A DNA stretch of 64,000 nucleotides from a virus. Its lineage: Duplodnaviria > Heunggongvirae > Uroviricota > Caudoviricetes. Position numbers and translations under genes: made by a program. Shown here one piece after another: positions 3,850 through 60,914 of the stretch. Numbering within the stretch: the first letter of the stretch is position 1; every line of letters starts with the position of its first letter. The stretch lies in IMG/VR virus record IMGVR_UViG_3300037466_003234, one strand, 5' to 3'. A model generated the notes under the pieces. The model was not told the DNA's origin and made no database searches. It worked only from the letters and a program-made list of their open reading frames with translations.

Positions 3850-4092
3850 TTATTTCTCCCTCTTATTAAAATGCTCATCACAGAAGTATTCGCTATAGAC
3901 TTCTCCATCGCGAACGCCGTGACATCCTCTAGTGCTTTCGGCACCACACTTACAATTCATGCTTTGACCAAATACAGTCTCGGCCTTTTCCTTACTTTCT
4001 TCGGCTCCAACACCATCAACGCTATAAAGCATAGTAGTGCTGTACCCACCAACATCCTTGTTGTTCTCATACTCTTTCCTTAATGCGATCAT
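3850..4092 (-). CDS. hypothetical small Cys-containing protein
   Basis: AAGGAAGGAA SD. Confidence 0.5.
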   Translation of the reverse strand: MIALRKEYENNKDVGGYSTTMLYSVDGVGAEESKEKAETVFGQSMNCKCGAESTRGCHGVRDGEVYSEYFCDEHFNKREK

Positions 4093-4511
4093 ATTCCTTC
4101 CTTGGCCTTTTTAACTGCTCGTATTGCGCTACTGGACAGATGAACCTTGTCTCTTCCAGAAATAATGTAAACGACCGGAATCTTGAGGCCTAGATCCTCG
4201 TACCAATATTGCTGGATCTTCTCGTCCTCAAAATCCTTAGTGTTTCTAAGGCCGCGAATAATAGCACAGGCGCCTACTTCAGCTGCGTAATCCGGTAGAA
4301 GGTAATTAAAGTGATGAACGCTGACTCTGTCCACGTATGACAAAGCGATGTCGAGCGGAAGAACGTTTTCAAAGTCAGGATAAGCATCCTTATCTGGATT
4401 AATTCCAGGGGCTACAATGACTTTGTCGAACATCTGAAGTGCAGCTAGTAAAACCTGCGTATGTCCGGCATGCCAGGGATTAAAGCTGCCAGGATAGATA
4501 GCGACTCTCAT
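4089..4511 (-). CDS. nucleotidyltransferase of the cytidylyltransferase superfamily (PPAT/CoaD-like or NMNAT-like)
   Basis: MRVAIYPGSFNPWHAGH carries the (H/T)xGH motif. MFDKVIVAPGINPDK, IIRGLRNTKDFEDE and ISGRDKVHLSSSAIR parallel CoaD MFDHVILAI / LIRGLRAVADFEYE / ISSSLVKE. The ATG overlaps the upstream stop (ATGA). Confidence 0.65.
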   Translation of the reverse strand: MRVAIYPGSFNPWHAGHTQVLLAALQMFDKVIVAPGINPDKDAYPDFENVLPLDIALSYVDRVSVHHFNYLLPDYAAEVGACAIIRGLRNTKDFEDEKIQQYWYEDLGLKIPVVYIISGRDKVHLSSSAIRAVKKAKEGI

Positions 4512-5011
4512 GACAGTAAGATCCCGATAATAAGATAGTGGGTTAAGTGATGAACGCCTTGGTCGAGGCCCAAGGCCCACCAAAAGTAGGTGTTTTCCTT
4601 GAGGCGCTGGCGTGCCCACGTAACCTTTTGCTTATATTCTTCACCGATAACAGCTACAGGCATATTGCCTTCAGCCATTTGAGCAACACCTGGGTAGCAA
4701 TTCGCATCCAAGGATTTATAACGACCAAGAAGGTTTGGGCTCGCTTTAATGCGATCCATAGCGAAATGTAGAACAAAATCTAGTAGACCAAGACCGATTG
4801 GCAGCAATTGATGGTCGTGAAGTTTGCCTGTAACAATGAGATAGAAAGAGGCAATGATCCACGTTCCAACTAGATGGACTAGGGCGTGCGCGGAGAGCGG
4901 TAAGATCCACTCACGTCCGCCCTTGAACTTCCCAAGCATGTAAGGGGTCTGCAAAGGATAGTCGCAAAAGAAGTGTTTAAGCTGAAACAGAACTAGAAGT
5001 AGGTAGATCAT
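4508..5011 (-). CDS. integral membrane protein
   Basis: Multiple hydrophobic helices (LLLVLFQL, LVGTWIIASFYLIVTG, WWALGLDQ...IIGILLS). Confidence 0.5.
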   Translation of the reverse strand: MIYLLLVLFQLKHFFCDYPLQTPYMLGKFKGGREWILPLSAHALVHLVGTWIIASFYLIVTGKLHDHQLLPIGLGLLDFVLHFAMDRIKASPNLLGRYKSLDANCYPGVAQMAEGNMPVAVIGEEYKQKVTWARQRLKENTYFWWALGLDQGVHHLTHYLIIGILLS

Positions 5012-7329: not shown

Positions 7330-7545
7330 TTAATCTCTTAATACGCAAACGCGGTAAAAACCCTTCTCGTCTTTGACAGGATAAAGACCGTTTGCGACAT
7401 TAACTTTGTACACGTACTTAATGTCTTGATCGTTCTCATGGCCGATCGAAACCCACATGCCGCGTTGGCCTGGGTTTGGATTCGTCTCAACTTCCTTAAG
7501 AATTAAAAGACCTTTTTTATCCTTTGCAAGCTTATAAAATCTCAT
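7330..7545 (-). CDS. hypothetical small protein
   Basis: ATG at 7545 with perfect AAGGAG SD (MRFYKLAKDKK...). Confidence 0.5.
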   Translation of the reverse strand: MRFYKLAKDKKGLLILKEVETNPNPGQRGMWVSIGHENDQDIKYVYKVNVANGLYPVKDEKGFYRVCVLRD

Positions 7546-10200: not shown

Positions 10201-11238
10201 AAAGTGTTTGTATGTCGGTATACAAGGGGGGTTAAGGCAGCTGTGTCACACAAACCCCGGAAACCGGTTTTTATGTCTGGTTCCGTATACTTAGCGCATG
10301 TAAGCAAGCCGCATGCCGTTACATGTGTCTGTATATAAAGCTGACACCTAGACAGCCAACAAAGAGTGTGCCAAATCAAAGACCGTGCCAGCTGTCAGCT
10401 TTGACATGGACATAGCCTAGACTAGACAAGGCCTAGTCATGCCGTGGAATAATCCCTAGCCGGCCTAGCCTAGCCGCGCCTAGAGACTTCAAGGGGTTAG
10501 GCGCTTGCGCTTAGTCGTGTCGTAATGAGTTGATTAGTTGACGGTCTTATTAATAAATAACGCGGTTTTTGTTAATAAGGCCTAAGCCTATTAAAGCCGC
10601 ATTGCATACGCTGGACGCACGAATGCACCGCGTGCATTTAGCCGCGATGCTGCAGACCATTAGAGACTATACGCGGCGGAAAAGGACCGCTTTTAGTCAA
10701 GGTCTAGGAAAAGCCACCTAAAGGCTAATCGTGTAGTGTGTCGTTTGGGACACATGTTAATTCTGACGCAGCTACTCTAGGCGCGGCTATACTAGCCGAT
10801 CTATTCCCGCTAGGGTATTCCCTGCTATAGGTCAGAACTGACACACCTACTCTTTTTGCCCTTATTTGCGTTATGCCGTTAGGCGGACTAGCAAGGTCAA
10901 GGCAACTAGATAGGCAAGTTTTAGGGTAAGGCCTAGCCGTCTAAACGAAAGGGTTTATAGGGCAAGCTAACGCGTCGTATGAGGGGTTAGCATTCTAGTT
11001 AGGCTTAAGATTGGATCGCCTAGGCGTTAATTAACGCTAATTCGTATAAGTTTTAGCCAGTGTTAAAGCCTTAGACGGTGCGCTAAGCGCCGAATATGAC
11101 TCAGCTATTCAAGATAGGGCCTAATAAAATCAGATACTTAGACGGCGCTATAGGTCATAGGGCTAAATCCTTATTTTGCTTATATTGTTAACTGGCATAT
11201 GCGATGCATTAACTATCGGCATAACGAAAGGGTTAAAT

Positions 11239-11358
11239 ATGACTAAGCCTAAGTTCTGCCTAGCTAACAAGTTCTGCGTCATGATCGGCATTATGGGGGT
11301 TAGACATATCAGACGCGCTAACCGCATTAAAGAGATTTTGGCCCAATTGGGCGAATAA
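11239..11358 (+). CDS. small protein (39 aa)
   Basis: ATG preceded by the conserved ATAACGAAAGGGTTAAATATG motif. Confidence 0.35.
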   Translation: MTKPKFCLANKFCVMIGIMGVRHIRRANRIKEILAQLGE

Positions 11359-11385
11359 CGGATAACTAAACGAAAGGGATAGAAT

Positions 11386-11616
11386 ATGACTAACGCTAAA
11401 ATCAGTTTTTCAGCTAGTGGCGTCGTGACTCAAGACGTGACTATTCTAGTAGACGGTTTAACGGTTAGCGATCTAGTCAAGGGTTTACAGGAAGGGCTTT
11501 ATTTAACCACAATGCAAGGCGATCGGATTATAAATAGCGAGACATTGCAACCGGTTGCTATCATTGAGGATATGGATACACAACTAGAATATGTTGATTT
11601 TGAATCAGAGGGTTAA
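11386..11616 (+). CDS. hypothetical early protein
   Basis: Conserved AACGAAAGGGATAGAATATG initiation motif. Confidence 0.55.
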   Translation: MTNAKISFSASGVVTQDVTILVDGLTVSDLVKGLQEGLYLTTMQGDRIINSETLQPVAIIEDMDTQLEYVDFESEG

Positions 11617-11618
11617 TT

Positions 11619-11906
11619 ATGACACAGGCCTATGTTTTAAGCTCTATTTTTGGCATGGCTAAAGCCACAATTAACAAGACTAAGCAAGGCTATACGTTGC
11701 ATATCGCTTTAACGCCTAAGGGAAGTCTGAAAGTTGCCAAGTATTTAACACAATCCGGCCATAGACGCAAAATTGACGCGCTTAGGTCATGGGAAGAGTT
11801 AGCCACTAGATTGGAAGTTGAATTGCAGCAATTGCAGGTTAACCATACTGGCCATTGCTTTAGCATTCCTTGCCATTGTAACAAAAAAGACTGTTGTCCG
11901 TTTTAA
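11619..11906 (+). CDS. hypothetical early protein (C-terminal Cys cluster)
   Basis: GAGGG SD; translationally coupled. Confidence 0.5.
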   Translation: MTQAYVLSSIFGMAKATINKTKQGYTLHIALTPKGSLKVAKYLTQSGHRRKIDALRSWEELATRLEVELQQLQVNHTGHCFSIPCHCNKKDCCPF

Positions 11907-11933
11907 TTTAACGAAAGGGATAGGGTTAATTAT

Positions 11934-12398
11934 ATGGGAGTTGACACGCGGCTTTATATTGCATCTAAATGGCAAGTTAGCGACATTAAAAAGGTTTTAG
12001 AGCGTACCTTTAACGTCACGGCTAGCGTAGAGATGCCATTAAAAGACACTTGCAACTATTTTAGATTAAACTTTACGGCGCCAGATGGCGAAAATCGCAG
12101 TATGTCAATTCATACACAGTCTAGCCATAATGGCTTTGAATGCACGACGCTTAGCCTAGGGTGTGGCGGTATGGCTATTGAGATCATGCAAGCGCTTGCC
12201 GATACCTTTGGCGGGTTTTTGCAAAAATATGACTCCGACGAAACATACCACGGCATTAGGGGCAAGCTAGACGATTGTGATAACTTGCCGTTCTGGATTA
12301 AAGACGCTATTCTAGCCGGCATTGATCCCGATAGCCTTGAAGAGTTAAAAGCCCATATTGCTAAAACTACAGCACGTTGGAAGTCTAACGGATTGTGA
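11934..12398 (+). CDS. hypothetical early protein
   Basis: AACGAAAGGGATAGGGTTAATTATATG motif. Confidence 0.55.
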   Translation: MGVDTRLYIASKWQVSDIKKVLERTFNVTASVEMPLKDTCNYFRLNFTAPDGENRSMSIHTQSSHNGFECTTLSLGCGGMAIEIMQALADTFGGFLQKYDSDETYHGIRGKLDDCDNLPFWIKDAILAGIDPDSLEELKAHIAKTTARWKSNGL

Positions 12399-12417
12399 AT
12401 AGTGGCTAAGCCTTGAT

Positions 12418-12450
12418 CACTGGCTAAAAGATCGCCATATTATTAAATTA
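12418..12450 (+). promoter_or_regulatory. sigma70-like early promoter, family copy 1
   Basis: CTGGCT-AAAAGATCGCC...-TATTAA. Member of the conserved AAAAGATCTAC family. Confidence 0.4.
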
Positions 12451-12553
12451 ACAATATAAGGAAAATAAGGCGTTAGCGTTGGCATTCTAGGTGCATAACC
12501 CTATACCATGACGCGGCGCTAACGACGCCGAACGGATAACGAAAGGGATAGTT

Positions 12554-12910
12554 ATGCAAGGCATGAGAAAAACAGGAGTTAGAACGGTTAACGTATATTG
12601 TGGCGCCGTCTATGGTAACGGCAAGCGTGCAAGCGGTTGCGGCGCTAAACCTAAATCTAGCGGCTTTAACGAGTATGCCTATAATCCAGACGGTTATAAA
12701 TCGCTATGGTCTACGGTTAGCCTCTGCCCAAAGTGTGAAGCTAGGGTTATCGTTATGCTTAGAACCTCTAGCGGTGCATTCTATGCGTCTAGTGATCGCG
12801 ATTTAAAGAAGTTGAAACGCACTGGCTTAGGCAACTTAGGTTATTTGTCTCTAGGCTTGCTTGCTAGTCACGTTGCTAAACATGGCTATAACGTTGCAAT
12901 TTTGGGATAA
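12554..12910 (+). CDS. hypothetical early protein (CxxC pairs)
   Basis: GATAACGAAAGGGATAGTTATG motif. Confidence 0.55.
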   Translation: MQGMRKTGVRTVNVYCGAVYGNGKRASGCGAKPKSSGFNEYAYNPDGYKSLWSTVSLCPKCEARVIVMLRTSSGAFYASSDRDLKKLKRTGLGNLGYLSLGLLASHVAKHGYNVAILG

Positions 12911-12925
12911 CGAAAGGGATTAGTT

Positions 12926-13117
12926 ATGTTTATTTTGATCAACTCTAAAGCTCAATGGCGTGAGTATTATAAAGGCATGATGTGCGGCGTTATCGTTGAA
13001 GTATCGCCCGAATTCGAGGAGGCAGTCACATTTGACACAGAGCAAGCCGCACTAAAAGAACGTGACACTAACCACGCGTTTTTAAAAGACTTTAAAGTCA
13101 TGCGCGTTAACGGATAA
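12926..13117 (+). CDS. hypothetical early protein
   Basis: Motif GATAACGAAAGGGATTAGTTATG. Confidence 0.5.
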   Translation: MFILINSKAQWREYYKGMMCGVIVEVSPEFEEAVTFDTEQAALKERDTNHAFLKDFKVMRVNG

Positions 13118-13132
13118 CGAAAGGGATAGATT

Positions 13133-13429
13133 ATGCAATGCTTAGCCAGTGAATTAAAGTCAATTGCTCAAAAATCAGTAGATCAAAGCGAGGTTAAAAC
13201 AATCGTCAATAGCCTTATAGACAAAGCTAAAGAAGCGGCTCAACTAGGCCGGACCTATATGGTTATAAAGCTTTTAGGCGACGCATATAAAACCCGCTTT
13301 GAATATAGCGAGTATAATAAAGACAAAGCCTTGCAAGTTGCCGTTAAAGAACACTTGATCAATCTAGGCTTTGATTTTGAATACCGCCATGGGGTTAACG
13401 GACTATATGCGGTTATGATCTGGGGTTAG
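13133..13429 (+). CDS. hypothetical early protein
   Basis: Motif GATAACGAAAGGGATAGATTATG. Confidence 0.5.
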   Translation: MQCLASELKSIAQKSVDQSEVKTIVNSLIDKAKEAAQLGRTYMVIKLLGDAYKTRFEYSEYNKDKALQVAVKEHLINLGFDFEYRHGVNGLYAVMIWG

Positions 13430-13605
13430 ATATGAGACTAGTTAAACTTATACTAACGCCGCTATTTAGGCTTGCATGCATGATTAGGCGTTATCATAAC
13501 TTCGATACGTCTAAAGTGTTATGGCATTCGTGCAAGCTATGCGGAAAAACTAAATATTGGGTTATGGGTAAGGGTTATCAATTCTAAGCTATTGAAAGGA
13601 TTAGT

Positions 13606-13737
13606 TATGTTGCGGCTTCGTTATGTTAGATATTGTGCAATGTGCTGTAATTACGTTGACTTAGAAGAGCATGAGGATCACGACGCGGAAAGTGTAGAAC
13701 TTTCAGACGATAGTCAAGAACTTAAACAGGCTGCCTA
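13606..13737 (+). CDS. small Cys-containing protein (43 aa)
   Basis: AAAGGATTAGTTATG motif variant. Below the track cutoff. Confidence 0.3.
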
Positions 13738-13862
13738 GACACAGTGTCATTAAGACCTGAAGGAAAATAAGGATTTAGCGATTTTAGCAATTGGCATACT
13801 GGCTGCAATAGATAGATGCATAACGAACGGCGTTAACGACGCCATAACGAAAGGGATAGGTT

Positions 13863-14678
13863 ATGTTAAATAATCAAGTTGCTAAAATCGTAAACCCAAT
13901 CGATCAAGTCAAGGCATTTGTAGAGCGTGACTCATATGGCTTTGTTAATACTCGCGAAGTGTTAGACATTTTCGGTCAAGCTGGATGGTCGCCAGTTAGC
14001 GAGTCATACGGCAAGGTTAAAAAGGAAGAGAAAAAGGGTTATCAAAAACACTTGATTAGACTCGAAAATCCAGCTTTTCCAGCTATTGAGGGGTTGACCG
14101 ATGCAAATAAGTCTAGGCCTCAATTAGTCGTGCTCAATAGTCACGACGGCTCTAGCAGCTTGCAAATCATGTGGGGCCTTATTCGTATCGCTTGCCTCAA
14201 TGGAATCATTGCCGGCACTGGCATTAATGGCGTTAGAATTGTTCACTCTAAATCGATCGTGGACAAGTTGCCTAGCGGTATTGACTATATGTTGAACAAC
14301 TTTGGCAAGTTCAATAGCCAAATCAAAGAGTTGCAAGGTAAGCAATTGAGCGCTGCAGCAACTAAAGAGTTGATTAAAATCGTATACGATGAGCGTCTGA
14401 AAGGTGTGTCTAACTTGACACAGGTCAACTATGACTTGATCCGTTCGCGCCGCATTGAGGATAACGCTAGCGACGCCTATACGATCTTTAACCGCGTGCA
14501 AGAAGCTCTAATGCGTGGCGGTATTCAATATCAATACCTTAAGCAATTTAAAGACGATAACGGCGCGGTTATCGGCTCAAAGCTCATAACGACGCATACC
14601 GGAAAAATCAGCGCGGTAACGAGTCAAGTAAAGCTTAATCAGCTTGCCTATGACACGGCGCTAAACCTTGCCGCATAA
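13863..14678 (+). CDS. hypothetical protein, possibly DUF932-like phage/plasmid family
   Basis: Motif CATAACGAAAGGGATAGGTTATG. LVVLNSHDGSSSLQIMWGLIRIACLNG resembles DUF932, from memory only. Confidence 0.55.
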   Translation: MLNNQVAKIVNPIDQVKAFVERDSYGFVNTREVLDIFGQAGWSPVSESYGKVKKEEKKGYQKHLIRLENPAFPAIEGLTDANKSRPQLVVLNSHDGSSSLQIMWGLIRIACLNGIIAGTGINGVRIVHSKSIVDKLPSGIDYMLNNFGKFNSQIKELQGKQLSAAATKELIKIVYDERLKGVSNLTQVNYDLIRSRRIEDNASDAYTIFNRVQEALMRGGIQYQYLKQFKDDNGAVIGSKLITTHTGKISAVTSQVKLNQLAYDTALNLAA

Positions 14679-14837
14679 TCTCTAGCGGCCTAAAACAGGG
14701 GTTAGGTTATCACGTTGCCGATCGCCTAACCCCTCATACTAAAAGGCTAGTCTATGGCTTTAGCTATTATAACGGTTATCAAGGTTTTAGCGGTTATAGG
14801 CCTAATAAGCATTCTAATTAAATCGGCTAAGCTTTGA

Positions 14838-14872
14838 ACACTGGCTAAAAGATCTACAGATTTTAAATTTAA
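14838..14872 (+). promoter_or_regulatory. sigma70-like early promoter, family copy 2
   Basis: CACTGGCTAAAAGATCTACAGATTTTAAATT. The ~100-bp flank is near-identical to the 12.41-12.50 kb copy. Confidence 0.4.
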
Positions 14873-14972
14873 CAATATAAGCAAAATAAGGCGTTAGCGT
14901 TGGCATTCTAGGTGCATTAACTAGATGCATAACGAACGGCGATAACGACGCCACTAACGAAAGGGATAGGTT

Positions 14973-15275
14973 ATGTTTCAAGTAAAGAATATTGTTAGAG
15001 TTGATAGCGAGACTGTTAAAGTCACGGTTACGATGGACGCTAAAGAATTTAACAAGGCTAAAAAACAGGGATTAGGTCAACTCTTTGGTATCGATATCTC
15101 TAACCACGTCTTTAGGGAATATGGCATTAAAGCCTATAACCCTAGCGTTGACGGCATTAAGTCTCGCGCCGTTCAAGGCGTTAAAACCCTGCAGCTTTAC
15201 TATAAAGATGACGCATGGGTCTACAATGACAACGTTGTCAGAGTTGATTTTGCAGCTAAACGCGTTGCGGCCTAA
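14973..15275 (+). CDS. hypothetical early protein
   Basis: Motif CTAACGAAAGGGATAGGTTATG. Confidence 0.55.
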   Translation: MFQVKNIVRVDSETVKVTVTMDAKEFNKAKKQGLGQLFGIDISNHVFREYGIKAYNPSVDGIKSRAVQGVKTLQLYYKDDAWVYNDNVVRVDFAAKRVAA

Positions 15276-15349
15276 ATAAGAAAATAACGTTTGACGCGCC
15301 GCACGAATTAACGCATACTAGATTTAACGGATAACGAAAGGGATAGGTT

Positions 15350-16162
15350 ATGGACATCACTAAAAAACTTGACATGATTGTTAATGCCAACGAATTGTTA
15401 AGCGAAATGTTTCCTAATAAACATAAGGATATTAAGCTAGACGAAGTTGAGGCAGTCTATAGCCGCAACGTGCTAGGCATTCAAGCCGATGCAAAAACTA
15501 AGAAAGGTACCGGCAAGGGATATTTAACCGGCATTATGTACCTTGCACCTGCTAGCCTTAGCGGCGTCAATATCTGCCCTAAATCTAGTGCGGGTTGCCG
15601 GTCCGCTTGCCTGTTTAGCGCCGGACGTGGACGCTTTTATAGCATCACGCGGGCGCGTATCGTTAAAACGCTTGCATATCACTTGGATACGCCGCGCTTT
15701 GTCGAAACTATTAAAAAATCGATCAAGTCTCTAATCGTAAAGGCTAAAAATCAAGGCCTAATCCCGGTTGTTAGGCTCAATGGCACATCGGATATTCTTT
15801 GGGAACGTACCACGGATATTTTGCAGACATTCCCCGATGTGCAATTCTATGACTATACTAAAATTGCTAAGCGGTTTTTGTTCAGTATTCCCGCTAACTA
15901 TCACTTGACGCTATCGCTTAGCGAGGATAACGATAACGACGCTAAGCTTGCACTATCCAAAGGCTTTAACGTTGCTGCAGTGTTTCGTAAAGAGTTGCCG
16001 TCAAGTCTCTTCGGCTATGATGTAACTAGCGGCGACGAAACTGATTTAAGGTTTTTAGATCGGCGCGGCGTCGTCGTGGGCCTTAAGGCTAAAGGCAAGG
16101 CTAAAACCGATCAATCTGGCTTTGTTAGGGATTATAGCAGCGCGGCTAAGATCGCCGCATAA
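15350..16162 (+). CDS. Cys-cluster protein (C-x6-C-x3-C), possibly Gp37/Gp68-like
   Basis: Motif GATAACGAAAGGGATAGGTTATG. NICPKSSAGCRSAC Cys triad; family assignment tentative. Confidence 0.55.
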   Translation: MDITKKLDMIVNANELLSEMFPNKHKDIKLDEVEAVYSRNVLGIQADAKTKKGTGKGYLTGIMYLAPASLSGVNICPKSSAGCRSACLFSAGRGRFYSITRARIVKTLAYHLDTPRFVETIKKSIKSLIVKAKNQGLIPVVRLNGTSDILWERTTDILQTFPDVQFYDYTKIAKRFLFSIPANYHLTLSLSEDNDNDAKLALSKGFNVAAVFRKELPSSLFGYDVTSGDETDLRFLDRRGVVVGLKAKGKAKTDQSGFVRDYSSAAKIAA

Positions 16163-16178
16163 CGAAAGGGAATCAATA

Positions 16179-16286
16179 TGTTAACTCAAGTTGTGCAAAA
16201 TACCGCGCCAGTGCTAGCGATTGTGCAAGCGGTTGTCTTGATCACTAGCGGCGTTATCATGGCTATCTATTCAGTCTCGAAAGGTT
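16179..16286 (+). CDS. small membrane peptide (35 aa)
   Basis: Motif ATAACGAAAGGGAATCAATATG. Hydrophobic VLAIVQAVVLITSGVIMAIY. Confidence 0.35.
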
Positions 16287-17479: not shown

Positions 17480-17518
17480 TTGGGTTTTTCAGAAGTGTTT
17501 TTTGGATAGAGAGGATCA

Positions 17519-17747
17519 TATGAGCACCACTAGATTTTGTGGCACTTGCTGTAGCAAGCCTAAGATGTGCGAGAATTGTATGGAAGCCACACTGCTATGC
17601 AATGGCTTGTCAGTGAATAAAGAGAATATGGATAAGCTTCGCGCCGTAGAGAGTGCCGAGCGCTCGCGATGGTTTGGAGCTAACGCATACACCTGGGTCG
17701 TCATGGACATTGCTAGAGGGGAGGGGGTTAAAAATGCACTTAGATAG
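17519..17747 (+). CDS. Cys-rich small protein
   Basis: ATG with AGAGAGGA SD. Upstream TTTTCAGAAGTG-TTTTTTGGAT motif. Confidence 0.45.
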
Positions 17748-17787
17748 AGACTATTTTCAGAAGTGATTTTTTGATTGAAAGGATCTT

Positions 17788-18015
17788 ATGCCTAAAGCAA
17801 TTAATCAGTATGTTACTGACTCTGTTAAGTCTTGGTATGTAAATAGAAAAACCTATTGCCTTATCAAGAATGCTGGTCAAGGCGATGAATACTTAGTGCG
17901 GGTTATTCCCGATGGACGCGACGCGGTTAGCTATTGGCTTAATAAAGGCCAAACATGGGAAACCGAGAGCGGCGCCGCATGGTCTATTCTTAATGATTTA
18001 GATGAAAGTGAGTGA
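17788..18015 (+). CDS. hypothetical small protein
   Basis: Upstream TTTTCAGAAGTGATTTTTTGATTGAAAGGATCTTATG. Confidence 0.5.
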   Translation: MPKAINQYVTDSVKSWYVNRKTYCLIKNAGQGDEYLVRVIPDGRDAVSYWLNKGQTWETESGAAWSILNDLDESE

Positions 18016-20433: not shown

Positions 20434-20772
20434 ATGAAAGATATTCTGATTATTGAGGAGGACCAGGCCATTAGAGAGGTTCTAGGTCTTTATTGTAATC
20501 ACTGCAGGCAAAATTGCATATGTGTGTGTAATATTGGCGAGGGATTTAAGGAGCTAGAAAAGAAAAATCCATCCCTTATTCTGCTAGATCTAAGTTACCA
20601 TACCGAAAACCTACCAGAATTTATCCGTAAGGCCAGACAATCGGTCTCTAATCCTCGTATTTTTATAATGAGCGCCATGAATGGCGCCGAAGAAATTGCA
20701 AGAAATAATGATGTAAGCTTCATTGCAAAACCTTTTCATCTTGATTTGATTGAGAAAATCATTTGCGAATAA
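20434..20772 (+). CDS. stand-alone response-regulator receiver (REC/CheY-like) domain protein with Cys-rich insertion
   Basis: ILIIEED...LILLDLS...IFIMSA...FIAKPF matches REC acidic pocket, phospho-acceptor Asp, S/T and Lys. CNHCRQNCICVCN inserted after beta1. GGGGAGA SD. Confidence 0.7.
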   Translation: MKDILIIEEDQAIREVLGLYCNHCRQNCICVCNIGEGFKELEKKNPSLILLDLSYHTENLPEFIRKARQSVSNPRIFIMSAMNGAEEIARNNDVSFIAKPFHLDLIEKIICE

Positions 20773-21662: not shown

Positions 21663-21732
21663 TATTTCGTTATTTTCGCTATTTACGAGCGGCATAGACC
21701 ATGCAACACTAGTCAGCAAGGAGATAAACAAT

Positions 21733-22827: not shown

Positions 22828-24879
22828 ATGAAACTCGCAAGCCATAACAATAAACTGGAAACGAACATTCAAGACGCTGAAACCCAAAACTTCGGAATTG
22901 GTGATGCAAGCGTTGTCATTGAAATTCTGCGGAACCGGCTCTATGAACACAAGATCCAAACGCTTGTTCAAGAATATATCTGCAATGCTCGCGACGCAAT
23001 GCGTGAATGCGGCAAGGCTAACGAATTCGAAGTGACTTGCCCTACCTCTTTGAGCCCTGTTTTTAAGGTGCGTGACTTCGGTCCTGGCATCTCCCCTGAT
23101 CGCATGGCTAACGTCTTCATCAAGTACGGCGCTAGCACTAAGCGTGACTCTAATAATCAGACTGGCGGCTTCGGCATTGGCGCTAAAAGCGCTTGGAGCT
23201 ACACCGATAGCTTCACGATTGTGACCTATATTGACGGTAACAAGCGCACCTATGTCGCGCATACCGGAGTCAACAATAACGGACGCCTGGACCTTTTGAG
23301 CACTGCTGCTACCTCGGAACCAAATGGAACCGAAATTCAAGTTCCTGTCGGTCGCTATGACCTTGACGAATTCCGCAGAGCTATCTATCGCGCTGTTTAC
23401 TTCTGGGAGTCTCGCCCAACCCTTAAGGGCGGAAACCACGAGTTGCCTACGCTTGTTGGCGGCGAGCGCATTAGCGATCTCGTCGAAGTGATCGATTATA
23501 AGATGCTCCCTGCCTTCTTGAACGTTGATTACTACGACAACATGCTTGCCGTGATCGATGGCGTGCCATACATGATCACCTCCAAACTCATGGATAAAGT
23601 CAAAAAGCTTAAAGATCTCAAGCAATTGACCAAACGATTCATTGTATTGCACTTTGGAAATGGTCTTGTGGAAGTCTCTGCAAGCCGCGAGTCTATCGCT
23701 GACTCAAAGGCTACAGTCGAAGGCCTGGAAAAACTTGCAGCGCAGGGGGTAGTGGCAATTAAAACCAAGATCTCCAGCGACTTTTCAAAAGTGAAATCTA
23801 GCTCGGATTTCTTTAAGACCTACCTTGCAATGGAACCATACTTCCATGTGGACAAGCTTGCTAAGTATGACGTTTATCAAATCGATGGAGGCTATGTTAA
23901 AGCTGACCTGCTCCATAAGGTTTCGTTGACTCGCATGCATATGTGGGGAAGAAATAGCCGCGTCCAGGTCGATCGCATCACCAAAGAGCAATTCGATCAA
24001 AGACAAAAGCAAAATGGCATTCGTCTTCAATACCTGAATAACGTTTACTTTCTTCGCGCATCTGAAAACGCTATTATCCAAAATAAGCGTCTGCGCGAAA
24101 ACATTGGCCCTAACTTGCCAGAAGTGCTCTTGATCGAGCAACTGGGCGATAACTCTGCGGAATTTGAGAAGTTAATTTTGGATCTGAATGCTAAAGACTT
24201 CCAAACGCTGACCTACGTAGAAAAGCCAAGGGCTCCGCGTGTTAAGATCGAGCGCGATAAGCAAGAATTCTGCATCCATCAATTCTTGGGTGTAAGACAT
24301 CACTATACAAGTCTGGCAGATAACACAGATAAGTGGCTCTATATCCCAATGAGCGGCGGCAGTCTTACAAACTTCTCAAATGTGGACCTTAAAGACGTAG
24401 CTTATTTCGTTAAAGAAACTACTGGACTTATCGTCTGCGGGCTCTCTGAGAACGTTGTGGAGAAGGTGAAAGATAACGCAAATTTCTTGCCATTCTCCGA
24501 ATGGATCGCAAAATTTAAACCTACCGACAAACAAATGGCTTATGTTAAAATGATGGAAGGCAAGAATACCAGTGTCATGTCGATCCTTTCTAAGCTGAAA
24601 GGTCTTAAGGATAAGTTTATTCTTGAAATGATTGAGGAATATAAGGGTGCAGTGAGAAACGATTTTTCTGGCGATCCGGTCCCTAAAATGTTCCTTGAGC
24701 TTATCAAGAACAGTGAAGAATATAAGGAATTCGTCAACAAAGACGGTAAGTTGAAAGATCTTATTGGAAGCAAATATAGACTTCTGAGCATGCTCGATGA
24801 CTACTATTTTTCCAAATCGACAAAATACGCTGAAGAAATCGTTATTTATATGAACGCTAAACACAAGGCTAAGGCTTAA
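22828..24879 (+). CDS. rIIA: rIIA-like protein (GHKL/HATPase_c N-terminal domain)
   Basis: ATG with GGAAGGGAA SD (the track start is a TTG). N-box EYICNARDAM, G1 VRDFGPGIS, G2 GGFGIGAKS. About 680 aa, immediately upstream of rIIB. Confidence 0.8.
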   Translation: MKLASHNNKLETNIQDAETQNFGIGDASVVIEILRNRLYEHKIQTLVQEYICNARDAMRECGKANEFEVTCPTSLSPVFKVRDFGPGISPDRMANVFIKYGASTKRDSNNQTGGFGIGAKSAWSYTDSFTIVTYIDGNKRTYVAHTGVNNNGRLDLLSTAATSEPNGTEIQVPVGRYDLDEFRRAIYRAVYFWESRPTLKGGNHELPTLVGGERISDLVEVIDYKMLPAFLNVDYYDNMLAVIDGVPYMITSKLMDKVKKLKDLKQLTKRFIVLHFGNGLVEVSASRESIADSKATVEGLEKLAAQGVVAIKTKISSDFSKVKSSSDFFKTYLAMEPYFHVDKLAKYDVYQIDGGYVKADLLHKVSLTRMHMWGRNSRVQVDRITKEQFDQRQKQNGIRLQYLNNVYFLRASENAIIQNKRLRENIGPNLPEVLLIEQLGDNSAEFEKLILDLNAKDFQTLTYVEKPRAPRVKIERDKQEFCIHQFLGVRHHYTSLADNTDKWLYIPMSGGSLTNFSNVDLKDVAYFVKETTGLIVCGLSENVVEKVKDNANFLPFSEWIAKFKPTDKQMAYVKMMEGKNTSVMSILSKLKGLKDKFILEMIEEYKGAVRNDFSGDPVPKMFLELIKNSEEYKEFVNKDGKLKDLIGSKYRLLSMLDDYYFSKSTKYAEEIVIYMNAKHKAKA

Positions 24880-41212: not shown

Positions 41213-41288
41213 TGGTCCGAGGGGAGGGAATTGCACCCTCATTTCCGGGTTCGGAAGCCGGCGTTTTAGCTAATTAAACTACCCAAGG
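41213..41288 (-). tRNA. tRNA-like gene, anticodon CCG (Arg) predicted, non-canonical
   Basis: CCA encoded. T-arm GAGGG-TGCAATT-CCCTC. D-stem GTTT/AAAC. Anticodon loop TTCCGAA with a C-C mismatch at the closing pair. Acceptor mismatches at 3-70 and 4-69. Confidence 0.45.
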
Positions 41289-41375
41289 GGCTGTGATGGC
41301 TTTGGGTGAAAAATCAGGTTGTTCGGGCTTGCCAGTAACTCAAATTAGCTATATCGCAAGTACACTTGGAATAAA

Positions 41376-41451
41376 TGGTCCGAGGGGAGGGAATTGCACC
41401 CTCATTTTCTCCTTCACAGGGAGATGTTCTATCTCGCTAAACTACCCAAGG
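41376..41451 (-). tRNA. tRNA-His (GTG), shares acceptor and T-arm with the previous gene
   Basis: Perfect anticodon stem TCTCC/GGAGA, loop CTGTGAA. 3' 31 nt and 5' 14 nt identical to the 41213 gene. CCA encoded. Confidence 0.55.
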
Positions 41452-41461
41452 GACGTTAAAG

Positions 41462-41538
41462 TGGCGGGGCCAGGGGGATTCGAACCCCCGATCTCTGCCG
41501 TGACAGGGCAGCGCATTAGGCCGCTATGCTATGACCCC
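41462..41538 (-). tRNA. tRNA-Asp (GTC)
   Basis: Canonical cloverleaf. T-loop TTCGAAT. Anticodon loop CTGTCAC. CCA encoded. Confidence 0.8.
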
Positions 41539-41543
41539 AAAAA

Positions 41544-41620
41544 TGGCGCACTCCCTGAGACTCGAACTCAGCGCTTACGGTTTAACAGACCGTCTTCTCC
41601 ACCCGGTAGAACTGGAGTGC
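41544..41620 (-). tRNA. tRNA-Asn (GTT)
   Basis: Acceptor GCACTCC/GGAGTGC. Anticodon loop CTGTTAA. T-loop TTCGAGT. CCA encoded. Confidence 0.8.
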
Positions 41621-41625
41621 AAACT

Positions 41626-41702
41626 TGGTAGCGGGTAGAGGTATCGCACCTCTCTGCTAGGCTTATGAGACCTGGCTGGATCTATCTCCAGTCGAACCCG
41701 CT
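41626..41702 (-). tRNA. tRNA-Met/Ile2-like (CAT), non-canonical D-arm and T-loop
   Basis: Acceptor AGCGGGT/ACCCGCT. Anticodon loop CTCATAA. T-arm AGAGG-TGCGATA-CCTCT. Two extra nt before the D-stem. Confidence 0.45.
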
Positions 41703-41723
41703 AAATTAACTTTCCTTTCATTC

Positions 41724-41750
41724 CCCGCCAGGCCCTACTTGCCTGGCGGG
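41724..41750. other. perfect 10-bp GC-rich hairpin between tRNA genes
   Basis: CCCGCCAGGC-cctactt-GCCTGGCGGG. Possible processing or termination element. Confidence 0.35.
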
Positions 41751-41760
41751 ATTTCAAACA

Positions 41761-41836
41761 TGGTGCCTGCTCTTGGTTCCGCTCCAAGTCCTCTAGCTCT
41801 TCAGGCTAGCGCTTCTACTAAGTTAGCTTAGCAGGC
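41761..41836 (-). tRNA. tRNA-Phe (GAA)
   Basis: Acceptor GCCTGCT/AGCAGGC. Anticodon stem CTAGC/GCTAG, loop CTGAAGA. T-loop AGCGGAA atypical. Confidence 0.6.
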
Positions 41837-41841
41837 AAAAT

Positions 41842-41917
41842 TGGTCGGGAAAGCACGATTCGAACGTGCGACCTCCTGTATCCAAAACAGGCCGTCTGAC
41901 CACTGACTTATTTCCCG
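41842..41917 (-). tRNA. tRNA-Pro (TGG)
   Basis: Acceptor CGGGAAA/TTTCCCG. Anticodon stem CCTGT/ACAGG, loop TTTGGAT. T-arm GCACG-TTCGAAT-CGTGC. CCA encoded. Confidence 0.8.
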
Positions 41918-42822: not shown

Positions 42823-44964
42823 TTACCCAGCGTTTTGCTGAACCTGCGAGAGGCTGATTGCAATTGGGATGAAGTACACGCTGGTTGCGAGCTTCGCTTC
42901 CACAGAAACATCCATCTCTGGTCCAGAGATCGATACTTTTGCGTTCTTGAATCCGAGCGGAGCGTCGTCAGAAGCCGCAGTCATCTTTAGCTTCTTATAT
43001 CCGTCAAACTTCTGAGCCAAGAAAGCTAGTGCGGTAGCAGCGTCAACGTCTGCCAAGGACTTACCGACGAAAGCCTTTTGGAAGCTGTCAGCGAGGTCGA
43101 GGGCAAGGATGTCTGCCAAGTACACAGCCTGGATGCTGTTGTAGACGAAGTTAGTGTCGAAGCCGTAAGTGGTTTGGTCAGAAACCCAACGATTTCCTGC
43201 TGCATCCTTAGTGAGGATGAGGAGGCCAGCGTCGAGTGCGTCTTCAACGTCGCCAGGGCTACCAGAGTCGAGACCGCTTGGGTCAACGAAGCTAATAACG
43301 TTTGCGAACTTGTTGGTGATGGACTTATAGAATCCACCAGCTTGCATACCTGCTGCGACTGCAGCGCCGTACCAAGGCATGAACGTAACGACGTTACCGG
43401 AAGCGTCTACTTGGGAAACCTTTTGGCATGTTAGAGATGCGCGGTAGTTTGCCAAGGATTGAGAAGCTGCCTTAACGTTCGAAAAGCTATCCCAGATGGA
43501 GAGCATTGCGATACGATTGCGCTTGAGCTTAGGCGTGCTGTATTGGATGCAGTGAGACTTAACGATCGCGTGAATTGCCGAGATCGTGTAAGCCGAAGTG
43601 CTGTCCGTGAGGCCATCAGCGATGTCGTCAGCAGCGTCGCGGCTGAAGAGTGGAACGATGATGTTGCACTGAATACCAGCAAGCTGGTTAACAGCGTTAA
43701 CGATATCGTTTGCCGAGGTAGCGCCACGAGCGCCGCCAGCAAGGTAGGCTGGAGCAGACATAACGCCTGGGAGACCTGCCTTAGCGGTAGCAACGAACTC
43801 CACAGCGTGGGAGGTAGCCATTGCCTTCTTGAATGCTGCCATAGCGCTCTTCACGCGGCCTGCCTTAGCTGCTGGAGAAGCGATTCCGATTGCGGAAACT
43901 TCGTCAAGAGCCGAAGGAGCTTGCTGCTGAGCTTTAGCGGAAGCAGAAGCGCTGTATCCAGGCTGAGAAGCGATGTAAGATGCTAGGTCTGCGATCGTGC
44001 GGAACTGGCTCATGTCGATGCTGAGGTTAGAACCTGATCCACCGGTAACCGTCGTGGAGAGGGTTCCAGAAGCGATCGAAAGAGTTGCAGTCGTGCCAGC
44101 ATAACCAACCATGAGGGCAACTTCTGCGTTAACATCGATCGTTTCGCTGAGGCCGGTATCTGGACGAGAGATAGCGACTTCAACGCCTGGCTCTTGAGCG
44201 GAAACAACGAGTCCAGCCGAAAGGCCGAGAGCAGCGAGATCGCCAGCTTGAGCGTCAATGAGTTCAAACGACTTGCCCCAACCCTTACGGTTAGCGGAAG
44301 CGTCAACTGCAACCGTTAGCTTGATGCTATTGGATGCCGTTCCTGGTGCGGCGGTGATGCCAGCAGGAAGTTGAGCATTAAGTTCGGTGCAAAGAGCAGC
44401 GACCGTATTGTGGTCCGAAGACGTGGTGCTGAGGGTAACGGTTGTCTTAGCGCCGCCGTTCAAGCGAACGTCGAACGTTAGACCGTTAAGAGCAGATCCA
44501 AGGGCTGCGATCGTGTCACCGCTAACGGTAGGAGCAGATTCAGCAGCGATTTGGGTGATTTGGAACTTATACTTGTTTCCAGACTTACCAACGTTCTGAT
44601 CTTTGAAGGTACCGAAGTCGCTATCAACGATAGCGGAAGCCTTGGTGCCTTGGTTCGTCTTAACGATGTAGACGAGGTTAGCAGATCCGCTGATGTCAGC
44701 GTCGCTCGATGGAGCAGAAAGAGCGCGGAAAGCGTCTACGATCTGGCCGCTCTGATAAGCCTGGGTGACTTTATCGAGCTGGTCAGGGGTGAATGCGTTG
44801 TCCTTGAGGGCAACTTCTTGGTAGCTGGCGCCGCCATCGGCTTCACCGATAATAACGACAATACCAGAAGCTCCAAGACCTACTGGGTTACTTTTAACAG
44901 TAACGTTAGGATAAGCACCTGGAATATTGGTGTTTACAAAGCTTGTAACTAGTCTTTGAGACAT
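42823..44964 (-). CDS. contractile tail sheath protein
   Basis: 713 aa. N-terminus NIPGAYPNVTV...GIVVIIGEADGG and C-terminus NRWVSDQTTYGFDTNFVYNSIQAVYLADILALDLADSFQKAFVGK resemble the sheath N/C domains. Followed by the tube gene. Confidence 0.75.
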   Translation of the reverse strand: MSQRLVTSFVNTNIPGAYPNVTVKSNPVGLGASGIVVIIGEADGGASYQEVALKDNAFTPDQLDKVTQAYQSGQIVDAFRALSAPSSDADISGSANLVYIVKTNQGTKASAIVDSDFGTFKDQNVGKSGNKYKFQITQIAAESAPTVSGDTIAALGSALNGLTFDVRLNGGAKTTVTLSTTSSDHNTVAALCTELNAQLPAGITAAPGTASNSIKLTVAVDASANRKGWGKSFELIDAQAGDLAALGLSAGLVVSAQEPGVEVAISRPDTGLSETIDVNAEVALMVGYAGTTATLSIASGTLSTTVTGGSGSNLSIDMSQFRTIADLASYIASQPGYSASASAKAQQQAPSALDEVSAIGIASPAAKAGRVKSAMAAFKKAMATSHAVEFVATAKAGLPGVMSAPAYLAGGARGATSANDIVNAVNQLAGIQCNIIVPLFSRDAADDIADGLTDSTSAYTISAIHAIVKSHCIQYSTPKLKRNRIAMLSIWDSFSNVKAASQSLANYRASLTCQKVSQVDASGNVVTFMPWYGAAVAAGMQAGGFYKSITNKFANVISFVDPSGLDSGSPGDVEDALDAGLLILTKDAAGNRWVSDQTTYGFDTNFVYNSIQAVYLADILALDLADSFQKAFVGKSLADVDAATALAFLAQKFDGYKKLKMTAASDDAPLGFKNAKVSISGPEMDVSVEAKLATSVYFIPIAISLSQVQQNAG

Positions 44965-54664: not shown

Positions 54665-54689
54665 AAGGAATTAAGGAATTAAGGAATTA
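54665..54689. repeat. 3x tandem GGAATTAA in the divergent intergenic region
   Basis: Seen directly, between the minus-strand gene ending 54585 and the plus-strand gene at 54708. Confidence 0.6.
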
Positions 54690-54707
54690 ACGAAAATAGG
54701 AGTTAAC

Positions 54708-56270: not shown

Positions 56271-57653
56271 TTAGTGGAGTTGGCCAGTGATGTTCTCGAT
56301 GAGAACATTCTTGCGAGGCTGATAAACAGCCAAGCTGAGGAAGCGGAAGTGCGCTTCTGGGAGCGACAAATCGCTAACAGCGAGCTTGAGCTTGCTGTAT
56401 GGAGCGAGTTGAGCGAGGCCCATCGTGTTTGCTTGGACCAAGAATCCGGTGACCGAGCCTGGAGCGCGGTTGCCGAGGTCGGTGAACACTGGGTTGCCAG
56501 CGCCTTGAGCAACGCGACCGATGAACTTAGCAGAAGCAGCGCTTCCACCAACGTCAGAGCGGTAAACGTTGTAATACTTAGCCTGAGCAACAGCGCCGAT
56601 CGTGACCGTGATCTTGTGCTGAGCAGCGATCGTTACAGATCCAGCAGCCGAAGGCATGGACTCACCGCGTTCGTTGCAAGCCGTAGCGTAGTACGTGAAT
56701 GCGCCGGCAGCGAGGAGGGTTCCTGCGGCACCTGCGTCAGCAACCGTGATCGAAGGAGCAGCTGGGCTGCCAGAACGAGCGCGGGCTGGGCGGGTCTTAC
56801 CAGACAAGAAGCGAGAAGCTTCTAGGCTGACAACTGCGCTGGAGGTCCACTGAGTGCGGAGGTGAGCGCCGGTTGATTCTTGAGCAGATCCAGCAAGAAC
56901 GATACGCTCCTTAGCGTGTGCGATCTTGTTGTATGCAGACAAGCTGATTGGGTCGAGCATGAGCTTGTCAGCTGCGCCCATGTTCATTGCAGAACGAACT
57001 GCAGCGTCTTCGATGATGGATTGCGAGAGCGTTCCACCAGCAGAGAGGACGACGGTTTGGTCAGAGCCAAACTCAGCGAACATAAGGTCTTGGGTGTTCG
57101 ACTGAGCGTCCGATTGACGAACTTGCTGGTCGAGACCGATCATGTTAGGAACCTTAGCAGCTGCCAATGGGTTACCATCGAACACACCTGCGTTGGAGTA
57201 GTCAGATTGACCACGGAAGCAGTCGAACTCGATGTCGCCAGCGAGCTTCATAGCTGCATCGCTAGCTGCGCGGTCTTCAGCCTTTTGGCCGTCGAACGTG
57301 CCGATCAAGTTAGCGGCAACGGTGACACGACGAGTCGTGCTGTAGTATGCCATAGGCACCACTGCACGAACGTAGTTCGAGGTTTCTTCTTCCCCGATAC
57401 CACCTTCATACTGTGCCGATCCACCAAAGATACCGTAGTCTAGCTGACGGTTGAATTGGTGAAGCTGGGACTTAACGTCCTTAGAAGGGATCATCTTCTG
57501 AAGCTTAATGTGTTGGTCTTCGAAAGTGACGTTGTGCATAACAGGGGAAAGGTCTTCCACCATTAGCGCAGCGCCTTGGGCTAGTTGGCCTGGAGCAGCA
57601 TTATAAGAACCTGCTTCCAAAGCTTTCATGAGTGATTGTAGTTGCTCAATCAT
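56271..57653 (-). CDS. major capsid protein (HK97-fold type)
   Basis: 460 aa immediately downstream of a scaffold-like gene. Ala/Gly/Ser/Thr-rich capsid-like composition. Confidence 0.6.
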   Translation of the reverse strand: MIEQLQSLMKALEAGSYNAAPGQLAQGAALMVEDLSPVMHNVTFEDQHIKLQKMIPSKDVKSQLHQFNRQLDYGIFGGSAQYEGGIGEEETSNYVRAVVPMAYYSTTRRVTVAANLIGTFDGQKAEDRAASDAAMKLAGDIEFDCFRGQSDYSNAGVFDGNPLAAAKVPNMIGLDQQVRQSDAQSNTQDLMFAEFGSDQTVVLSAGGTLSQSIIEDAAVRSAMNMGAADKLMLDPISLSAYNKIAHAKERIVLAGSAQESTGAHLRTQWTSSAVVSLEASRFLSGKTRPARARSGSPAAPSITVADAGAAGTLLAAGAFTYYATACNERGESMPSAAGSVTIAAQHKITVTIGAVAQAKYYNVYRSDVGGSAASAKFIGRVAQGAGNPVFTDLGNRAPGSVTGFLVQANTMGLAQLAPYSKLKLAVSDLSLPEAHFRFLSLAVYQPRKNVLIENITGQLH

Positions 57654-60838: not shown

Positions 60839-60914
60839 GGGGTCGTAGCTCAGTTGGTAGAGCGGTAGCTTTGCAAGCTATAGGTCAAGGGTTCGAGTCC
60901 CTTCTTCTCCACCA
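60839..60914 (+). tRNA. tRNA-Ala (TGC) with imperfect acceptor stem
   Basis: D-arm GCTC-AGTTGGTA-GAGC. Anticodon loop TTTGCAA. T-arm AAGGG-TTCGAGT-CCCTT. CCA encoded. G3-U70 present; mismatches at 5-68 and 6-67. Confidence 0.6.

Follow-up and report, generated by a model that had tools for sequence, protein, structure and literature searches.

The analysis of 64 kb of DNA from the IMG/VR record IMGVR_UViG_3300037466_003234 (the whole of this stretch is hereafter called the window) confirmed that a reiterated start cassette, composed of a stop codon, a ribosome-binding site and a start codon, precedes ten small genes and is specific to a single 5-kb block. The source phage is a large Mx1-like myovirus, and the window represents 64 kb of its ~170-kb genome, with roughly 100 kb lying outside. 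The core of the motif, (T/A)AACGAAAGGG, is found in 10 copies at positions 11222-16170, all of them on the + strand and each 7-14 nucleotides (nt) ahead of an ATG, which is the start codon in every case; the distance between core and ATG is 7-8 nt in nine of the copies and 14 nt in the other one. The TAA, TAG and ATG of the motif share one reading frame. In three copies the preceding gene ends at that TAA, and in five of the six internal copies the stop of the upstream gene lies in frame with the ATG that follows, at 18 or 30 nt. Besides, folding calculations predicted that the Shine-Dalgarno (SD) sequence within the motif is unpaired (mean unpaired probability of 0.49-0.99).

The match counts, the restriction to the block and the absence from sense coding sequences demonstrate that the motif is real and far beyond what chance would produce. 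Allowing up to three mismatches, the full 21-nt pattern was matched six times in the window against 0 expected, while TAACGAAAGGG with at most one mismatch was matched 14 times, only on the + strand, against 1.3 expected. Ten of these 14 matches directly precede the ATGs at 11239, 11386, 11934, 12554, 12926, 13133, 13863, 14973, 15350 and 16178, and of the remaining four, one is the ribosome-binding site of rIIA (22811), one is an orphan located in the leader (10943) and two are GGA variants (1886 and 7284) antisense to minus-strand, leftward genes. The word CGAAAGG occurs 20 times on the + strand and is absent from the - strand, and the commonest 11-mers of the entire window are those of the motif, with nine copies that are each followed by an ATG within 18 nt. 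Likewise, in a close relative of ~170 kb found in IMG/VR (IMGVR_UViG_3300037423_001736; loci L005, L017 and L224), all eight exact 15-mer copies lie inside the homologous block (contig positions 24562-33403). Altogether, 10 copies and a degenerate one were counted in the window and 12 (as the word ACGAAAGG) in the relative, all of them in one 5-kb block of ORFan genes. A metagenome scan for AACGAAAGGGATAG yielded, among the matches listed, single hits resembling chance.

The initial annotation had listed 11 gene starts preceded by the element, placed AAAGGGA as the SD and considered the conservation of its flanks (TAACG upstream and ATAGNTT downstream) to exceed the needs of the ribosome. Ten of the listed starts were confirmed, the last of them at 16178 rather than 16179, and the site given at 13606 turned out to be an ATG at 13607 carrying a degenerate copy. 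The location on the ribosome-binding site held as proposed, since GAAAGGG is the sole SD-like sequence at a suitable distance before the block starts. Regarding the flanks, the upstream part of the claim finds support, as the 21 copies counted in the window and the close relative all have AAC(G) 5' of GAAAGGG, and AAC also recurs in two more distant relatives, L020 and L021. The downstream part fared worse: the invariant portion of the motif is limited to AACGAAAGGG, and ATAGNTT was found in 7 of the 10 copies, the deviating ones being those before 11239 (with GGGTTAAATATG), 16178 (with GGGAATCAATATG) and 11934 (with the 14-nt spacer GGGATAGGGTTAATTATATG). The regulatory interpretation attached to the element is thus partly supported, and the description of the block genes as early is an assumption, the promoters in front of them being sigma54-like.

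Two observations that could have reduced the motif to an ordinary ribosome-binding site were also contemplated in the initial annotation, namely copies occurring equally inside coding regions and a generally preferred SD with random flanks. A search of the window retrieved no copy in sense coding sequence. In addition, a census was made in which starts were chosen for all non-overlapping open reading frames (ORFs) and the upstream sequences were tallied, taking as the non-block set 73 ORFs of at least 80 amino acids (aa). GAAAGG or AAAGGG was present at 11 of 13 block starts against 1 of the 73 other ORFs, 49 of which carry GGAG, GAGG or AGGA instead, as exemplified by the canonical SDs of the capsid (TAAGGAGAATAACAATG) and sheath (TTAAGGAGAAACCAACATG) genes. 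The block motif is therefore a private, class-specific SD with non-random flanks and not the general SD of the phage, whose highly expressed structural genes use AAGGAG, and this opposition between GAAAGGG and AAGGAG provides a clean contrast within one genome. The genes starting at 11619 and 13432 lack the motif although they are located inside the block operons.

Other repeated start contexts were observed in the window. One of them, G(A/G)G(G/A)GTTAATTATG, is found at 7545, 11619, 46927, 51731 and other positions in both arms, where the start often abuts the preceding stop, and it doubles as a spacer variant of the motif in the relative (GAAAGGGTTAATTATG). A second and smaller family of reiterated starts is formed by a 37-nt upstream region, TTTTCAGAAGTG.TTTTTTGAT.GA.AGGATC.TATG, repeated at 17486-17522 and 17754-17790 (+) and serving the adjacent small genes 17520-17747 and 17788-18015. 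Moreover, a tandem repeat, (AAGGAATT)x3, occupies 54665-54690 (+), directly upstream of the ribosome-binding site of a deoxynucleoside monophosphate kinase gene (54708), and related words, (G)AAATTAAC, are found ahead of the SD in further genes, among them those for capsid, sheath and rIIA.

The comparison with the close relative, which is 98-100% identical to the window across much of the block, displays gene cassettes swapped at motif copies. Both phages are colinear at 6.1-11.4 kb and 18.8-23 kb, and the segment between 11.4 and 18.8 kb is mosaic. A gene of 160 aa exclusive to the relative is bordered on each side by TAAACGAAAGGG, at a place occupied in the window by just one hybrid copy (11368), and the window gene 11934-12398 is missing from the relative together with its motif, the right edge of the difference being the promoter repeat at 12404. 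Further along, the gene 13133-13429 is replaced in the relative by an allele of the same length and 52% identity, with the divergence starting exactly past GATAACGAAAGGGATAG (GGGATAG), and a relative-only gene of 74 aa is followed by a new motif copy, GCTAACGAAAGGGATAGGCATG. Thus, a motif copy marks an edge in three of these four gene-sized differences, and the other one terminates at a promoter repeat. The core is identical across both phages, whereas about 6 of 10 orthologous pairs have unlike spacers within near-identical DNA (ATAGTTATG vs. ATAGATTATG; GATTAGTTATG vs. GATAGGTTATG; AATCAATATG vs. ATAGGTTATG), so that ATAGNTT is not tightly constrained. Such a concentration of differences at the 3' edge of the core, in DNA that is otherwise nearly identical, is the expected trace of crossovers inside the core. 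In addition, the first five codons, ATGACTAACGCTAAA, are common to the window gene 11386 and the GP88 gene of the relative, even though these genes are unrelated.

The more distant relatives extend this pattern. The GP88 protein has 72% aa identity to that of the window in L020 and ~60% in L021, and the DUF932 protein of L021 has 54%. Both genomes keep ribosome-binding sites of the GAAAGG(G) type with flanks unlike those of the window: the L021 orthologues of four window genes have their own reiterated forms, GAAAGGGAAAACATATG (core word present four times) or GAAAGGGGTTA...ATG, and L020 shows AAAAGGATAAGGTGATTTATGGCTAAA twice and ATAACGAAAGGGATAC once. These flanks track the genome and not the gene, which argues for concerted evolution. 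Neither the motif nor the promoter type described below was found in Mx1. The SD word itself is reiterated in tandem (GAAAGGGAAAGGAAAGGGAAAACGTATG) in the start region of the L021 orthologue of window gene 16530 (L021 8285-8310).

The block is organized as four units, each with a sigma54-like promoter in front. The pattern TGGCAY-N6-TGCW has seven exact matches in the window, all intergenic, on the + strand and within 11.2-22.6 kb, against 0.55 expected; with a CGGCAT variant at 21690, eight rightward sites are obtained (11193, 12480, 13792, 14901, 18331, 19006, 21690 and 22599). The block promoters closely match the consensus of sigma54 promoters, in which -24 GG and -12 GC stand at an exact spacing (TGGCAC-N5-TTGCW), and in six of the eight sites AAAAGATC lies exactly 54 nt upstream, with a AATAAGGAAATTAAG-like box between. 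The first four sites (P1-P4) head motif-bearing genes and the last four head genes with ordinary SDs, so that the motif is narrower than the promoter class. The repeats of ~150 nt at 12404-12553, 13749-13862, 14825-14972 and from 18255 onward are promoter cassettes, and good intrinsic terminators are found ahead of the four promoter cassettes further downstream. A reading of these repeated intergenic regions as sigma70 promoters was ruled out, because a sigma70-type scan of 10.3-23 kb remained at chance level (29 found vs. 26 +/- 5 expected). The leaders behind P2, P3 and P4 contain a small GC hairpin with the loop NUAACGA (Table 1), and those of P3 and P4 have three UAACGA units spaced 12-13 nt, one of which is in the hairpin loop.

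The sigma54-like pattern is also present in L020 and L021, with an upstream element of the CTAAAAGTTCTAC type and, at the equivalent leader position, GC stems of different sequence. The same promoter architecture recurs in the IMG/VR contigs 3300005529_000023 and 3300037311_000024 and is absent from Mx1, and a scan of viral sequences for the promoter upstream element returned, among the matches listed, just two already known contigs. No Sigma54_activat domain was detected among the window ORFs scanned. Promoter cassettes of this kind are unusual for a lytic-type myovirus, perhaps more so than the motif itself, and a brief literature search found no description of a sigma54-dependent gene class in such a phage. 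If these promoters are functional, this phage group would depend on an enhancer-dependent sigma factor of the host for a whole gene class. A stand-alone response-regulator receiver protein (PF00072, E = 6.9e-9) is encoded at 20434-20772 (+) amid the genes with sigma54-like promoters, and host activators of the NtrC type could be among its partners.

Table 1. Motif copies, sigma54-like promoters and leader hairpins located in the window.
Feature	Position	Strand	Remarks
Motif copy 1, TAACGAAAGGGTTAAATATG, variant spacer	11222..11241	+	First gene behind P1
Motif copy 2, AAACGAAAGGGATAGAATATG	11368..11388	+	In the relative, the 160-aa gene is inserted here between two motif copies
Motif copy 3, TAACGAAAGGGATAGGGTTAATTATATG, 14-nt spacer	11909..11936	+	Copy and gene 11934-12398 missing from the relative
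Motif copy 4, TAACGAAAGGGATAGTTATG	12537..12556	+	First gene behind P2
Motif copy 5, TAACGAAAGGGATTAGTTATG	12908..12928	+	TAA is the stop of ORF 12554-12910
Motif copy 6, perfect	13115..13135	+	TAA is the stop of ORF 12926-13117
Degenerate copy, TATTGAAAGGATTAGTTATG / TTGAAAGGATTAGTTATG	13590..13609	+	ATG 13607
Motif copy 7, perfect	13845..13865	+	DUF932 gene, first behind P3
Motif copy 8, perfect	14955..14975	+	First gene behind P4
Motif copy 9, perfect	15332..15352	+	GP88-family gene; 29-nt TTAACGGATAACGAAAGGGATAGNTTATG 97% identical to copy 6
Motif copy 10, TAACGAAAGGGAATCAATATG	16160..16180	+	TAA is the stop of ORF 15350-16162; opens a 36-aa hydrophobic ORF
Orphan core, AAACGAAAGGG	10943..10953	+	In the 860-nt non-coding leader; no start codon behind
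P1, sigma54-like -24/-12 element, TGGCATATGCGATGCA	11193..11208	+	
P2, composite promoter	12425..12495	+	AAAAGATC 54 nt before TGGCATTCTAGGTGCA (12480-12495); within the ~150-nt repeat 12404-12553
P3, sigma54-like element, TGGCATACTGGCTGCA	13792..13807	+	
P4, composite promoter	14846..14916	+	TAAAAGATCTAC, 54 nt on TGGCATTCTAGGTGCA
Hairpin in 5' untranslated region, CGGCG-CTAACGA-CGCC(G)	12514..12529	+	Between P2 and motif copy 4
Hairpin in 5' untranslated region, GGCG..CGCC	13828..13843	+	GCCG..CGGC in the relative, one compensatory pair
Hairpin in 5' untranslated region, GGCG-ATAACGA-CGCC	14937..14952	+	

We favor, with moderate confidence, a reading in which the motif is a portable translation-initiation junction within a hyperplastic block of small accessory genes, made uniform by recombination. 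GAAAGG(G) is complementary to the CCUUUC at the 3' terminus of bacterial 16S rRNA, and pairing between both sequences would place the ribosome 7-8 nt ahead of the ATG. At its 5' edge, the TAA of the motif would terminate the preceding gene or provide a backup for its stop and, being in frame and 18 nt before the ATG, may favor re-initiation coupled to the translation of that gene. The copies would also recombine with one another, in such a way that genes may come, go or be replaced as cassettes joined at the motif or at the repeated promoter cassettes, and the uniformity of the motif would result from concerted evolution rather than from a ribosome reading each position. This reading builds on the directly observed position, strand bias and class specificity of the copies and on their lineage-specific flanks; in particular, the uniformity within genomes, the divergence between genomes and the indels and replacements bounded by motif or promoter repeats point to recombination among copies. 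From this perspective, the window bears on whether start-associated elements are regulatory operators or the "Lego studs" for shuffling accessory genes.

Several observations weigh against such a junction. The AAC that is invariant 5' of GAAAGGG should not pair with 16S rRNA, taking as reference the general bacterial tail CCUCCUUUCU, from which that of the host may differ. TAACG is enriched ten-fold just upstream of the core (10 occurrences in ten 40-nt windows vs. 0.98 expected, P ~1e-7, the copies not being independent), and in three of the four units of the block UAACGA is presented twice, at the ribosome-binding site and in the loop of a hairpin. The AAC, the clustered UAACG and the loop UAACGA look like recognition determinants, which neither SD function nor recombination alone explains. 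Moreover, 11-15 nt of homology are few for homologous recombination to be efficient, not all breakpoints are on the motif, as some are in promoter repeats or within genes, and the comparison with only one close relative means that few independent events were scored.

The three recognition-like features make a class-specific post-transcriptional operator worth considering, in which an RNA-binding protein or endoribonuclease of the phage or host would read (UAACGR)n-AAGGGA, partly in or near a hairpin, and co-switch the gene set. The private SD type would distinguish the mRNAs of the block from all others, the AAC invariance should exceed SD needs, TAACG is enriched upstream, the spaced UAACGA units in the P3 and P4 leaders are associated with a stem showing one compensatory change, and the flanks are uniform in each lineage and yet lineage-specific, as if the sites co-evolved with a factor. 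However, the scan of ~55 window ORFs revealed no RNA-binding or nuclease domain, ~100 kb of the genome being outside the window, and the 3' half of the motif is free to vary between near-identical phages. In addition, 11619 and 13432 belong to the same operons without having the motif, the AUAAC/GUUAU pairing around the SD forms a weak local hairpin (-0.4 to -4.4 kcal/mol) that lacks covariation, the complementary CCCTTTCG of a possible antisense RNA partner has 0 occurrences on the + strand of the window, and an Rfam scan detected six tRNAs only. We therefore regard this operator as a tentative alternative. A bolder version of it, which appears rather unlikely at present, would take the entire block as a self-contained expression system, in which sigma54-type promoters, an upstream element at fixed phase, a 5' hairpin and the private (UAACGR)n-AAGGGA site read by a phage RNA-binding protein or nuclease would cause the genes to be translated or silenced as one class apart from the AAGGAG genes, with the lineage-specific flanks representing co-evolving operator-regulator pairs.

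Independent selection could also have arrived repeatedly at the same strong ribosome-binding site, with no need of recombination or a regulator, as might be suggested by the occurrence of GAAAGG(G) in three diverged lineages and by the predicted accessibility of the SD. We consider this convergence improbable, since it leaves unexplained the identical non-pairing flanks, the 29-nt stretches at 13107 and 15324 that are 97% identical, the motif-bounded indels and the five first codons shared by unrelated genes, and since AAGGAG is the sequence that the highly expressed structural genes of this phage employ. Even less credible is a DNA-level site bound by a transcription factor or another DNA-binding protein, similar to the "stoperators" of Cluster A mycobacteriophages and overlapping the ribosome-binding site only because intergenic space is scarce: the copies do share one orientation to transcription and sit in short intergenic gaps of a block where other DNA signals abound (eight sigma54-like promoters, six of which have their upstream element at a constant 54 nt), but their fixed spacing is to the ATG and not to the promoters, they occur both beside promoters and deep in operons, their core is the only available SD of these genes, and the motif is not palindromic.

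Other candidates were examined and discarded. The local AUAAC/GUUAU hairpin around the SD is absent in half of the copies, besides being weak, and the TAAAC and CTAAC copies have no compensating change. AAAGGGA fits the XXXYYYZ heptamer of -1 frameshift sites and comes after the in-frame stop TAA, while stop-codon read-through would meet a TAG four codons on in the same frame. Paralogy of the downstream genes was rejected as the cause of the repetition, given that their proteins are unrelated (DUF932, GP88 and ORFans). Nothing in the analysis points to the shared RNA processing site that had been offered as an option in the initial annotation. Sites of the RNase E type have the consensus RN/WUU, which fits one spacer variant only.

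Among known features, the motif most resembles the start-associated sequences (SAS) described in 2011 for Cluster K mycobacteriophages, although they are not homologous, and the window represents a second, unrelated case of such repeats. SAS occur in 11-19 copies in the non-structural part of the genome, about half of them with an extra upstream element, and their function was left undetermined (Pope et al., 2011; PMC3203893). Like the window motif with its 10 copies and a degenerate one, they are short asymmetric repeats confined to non-structural genes, in one orientation and a few nt before starts that are mostly ATG, and they sometimes contain the upstream stop codon. SAS also overlap the SD, as the window motif does, and have conserved positions unable to pair with 16S rRNA; the AAC of the window motif, present in 21 of 21 copies, might be of this kind, judging by the general tail. 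In contrast, the phage lineage and host are unrelated to those of the window, and the SAS consensus 5'-GGGATAGGAGCCC is not reproduced by the motif, which shares with it the octamer GGGATAGG alone, in another register to the SD and ATG. Furthermore, the SAS extension (ESAS) consists of 17-bp inverted repeats, whereas the window has a GC hairpin of 4-5 bp in three copies and TAACG repeats; the copies are packed in 5 kb and not spread across half a genome; and the flanks are lineage-specific instead of conserved across subclusters.

The promoter-early stem-loops (PeSL) of T4-type phages (Arbiol et al., 2010, PMC2839356; Comeau et al., 2014, PMC4122927) offer a second comparison. They are likewise short, repeated regulatory cassettes in hyperplastic regions rich in small ORFans, and repeats that bound indels or replacements between close phages (PMC2839356) were equally found between the window and its relative. 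The ~150-nt repeats of the window are also promoter cassettes and, further downstream, are preceded by terminators. However, a PeSL comprises a sigma70-type promoter and a terminator, and the window motif, an 11-21 nt ribosome-binding junction, has neither, the promoters of the window being sigma54-like.

In T4, early mRNAs are controlled by RegA, which represses at ribosome-binding sites through an AU-rich operator at the start codon, and by the nuclease RegB, which cuts early SDs (PMC1702504; Uzan and Miller, 2010, PMC3014915). The likeness to the window may be one of logic only, in that a sequence at the SD and start would mark one temporal class of genes for a phage factor. RegB acts on single-stranded RNA, where it requires GGA and the following ~8 nt (Durand et al., 2006, PMC1702504), and its target is GGA(G) followed by an A-rich tract, whereas the window sequences GGGAUAG and GGGAUAGGUUAUG are not A-rich downstream. 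No RegA- or RegB-like protein was detected with Pfam or PHROGs among the scanned ORFs of the window, which covers 64 of ~170 kb. The window motif was further compared with the sites of CsrA/RsmA. These present GGA in the loop of a short hairpin over the SD, usually with more GGA sites upstream. Against this consensus, the GGA of the window lies in the loop of a weak AUAAC/GUUAU hairpin in about half of the copies, and the repeated upstream unit is UAACG and not GGA.

Regarding the phage itself, its capsid protein finds the nearest record in Myxococcus phage Mx1 (55% aa identity), whose genome has 169.6 kb (PMC10720576), and megablast searches of GenBank phages with the block and the structural region returned no match and no near-identical relative. 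Capsid relatives in genome assemblies were found in metagenome-assembled genomes from four unrelated phyla, a scatter that suggests binning noise. The window encodes rIIA (22828-24879), nicotinamide phosphoribosyltransferase (61937-63397) and six tRNAs and, on the minus strand, the tail sheath (42823-44964) and major capsid protein (56271-57653). Its genes run leftward at 1-10.4 kb and rightward at 11.2-35.7 kb, both arms being separated by a non-coding stretch of 860 nt. This ORF-free stretch (10380-11190), which holds the orphan motif core (10943), is rich in CCTAG, CTAGG and GGCCTA words and may be an origin or control region. Five of the tRNAs are clustered at 41216-41917 (-) and the other is at 60839-60911 (+), compared with 22 tRNAs in Mx1. 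In addition, the segment 61143-63397 (+) harbors a phosphoribosyltransferase/phosphoribosyl pyrophosphate (PRPP)-synthetase-like protein adjoining nicotinamide phosphoribosyltransferase, which together form a salvage pair for nicotinamide adenine dinucleotide (NAD), and a cytidylyltransferase-like protein is encoded at 4089-4619 (-).

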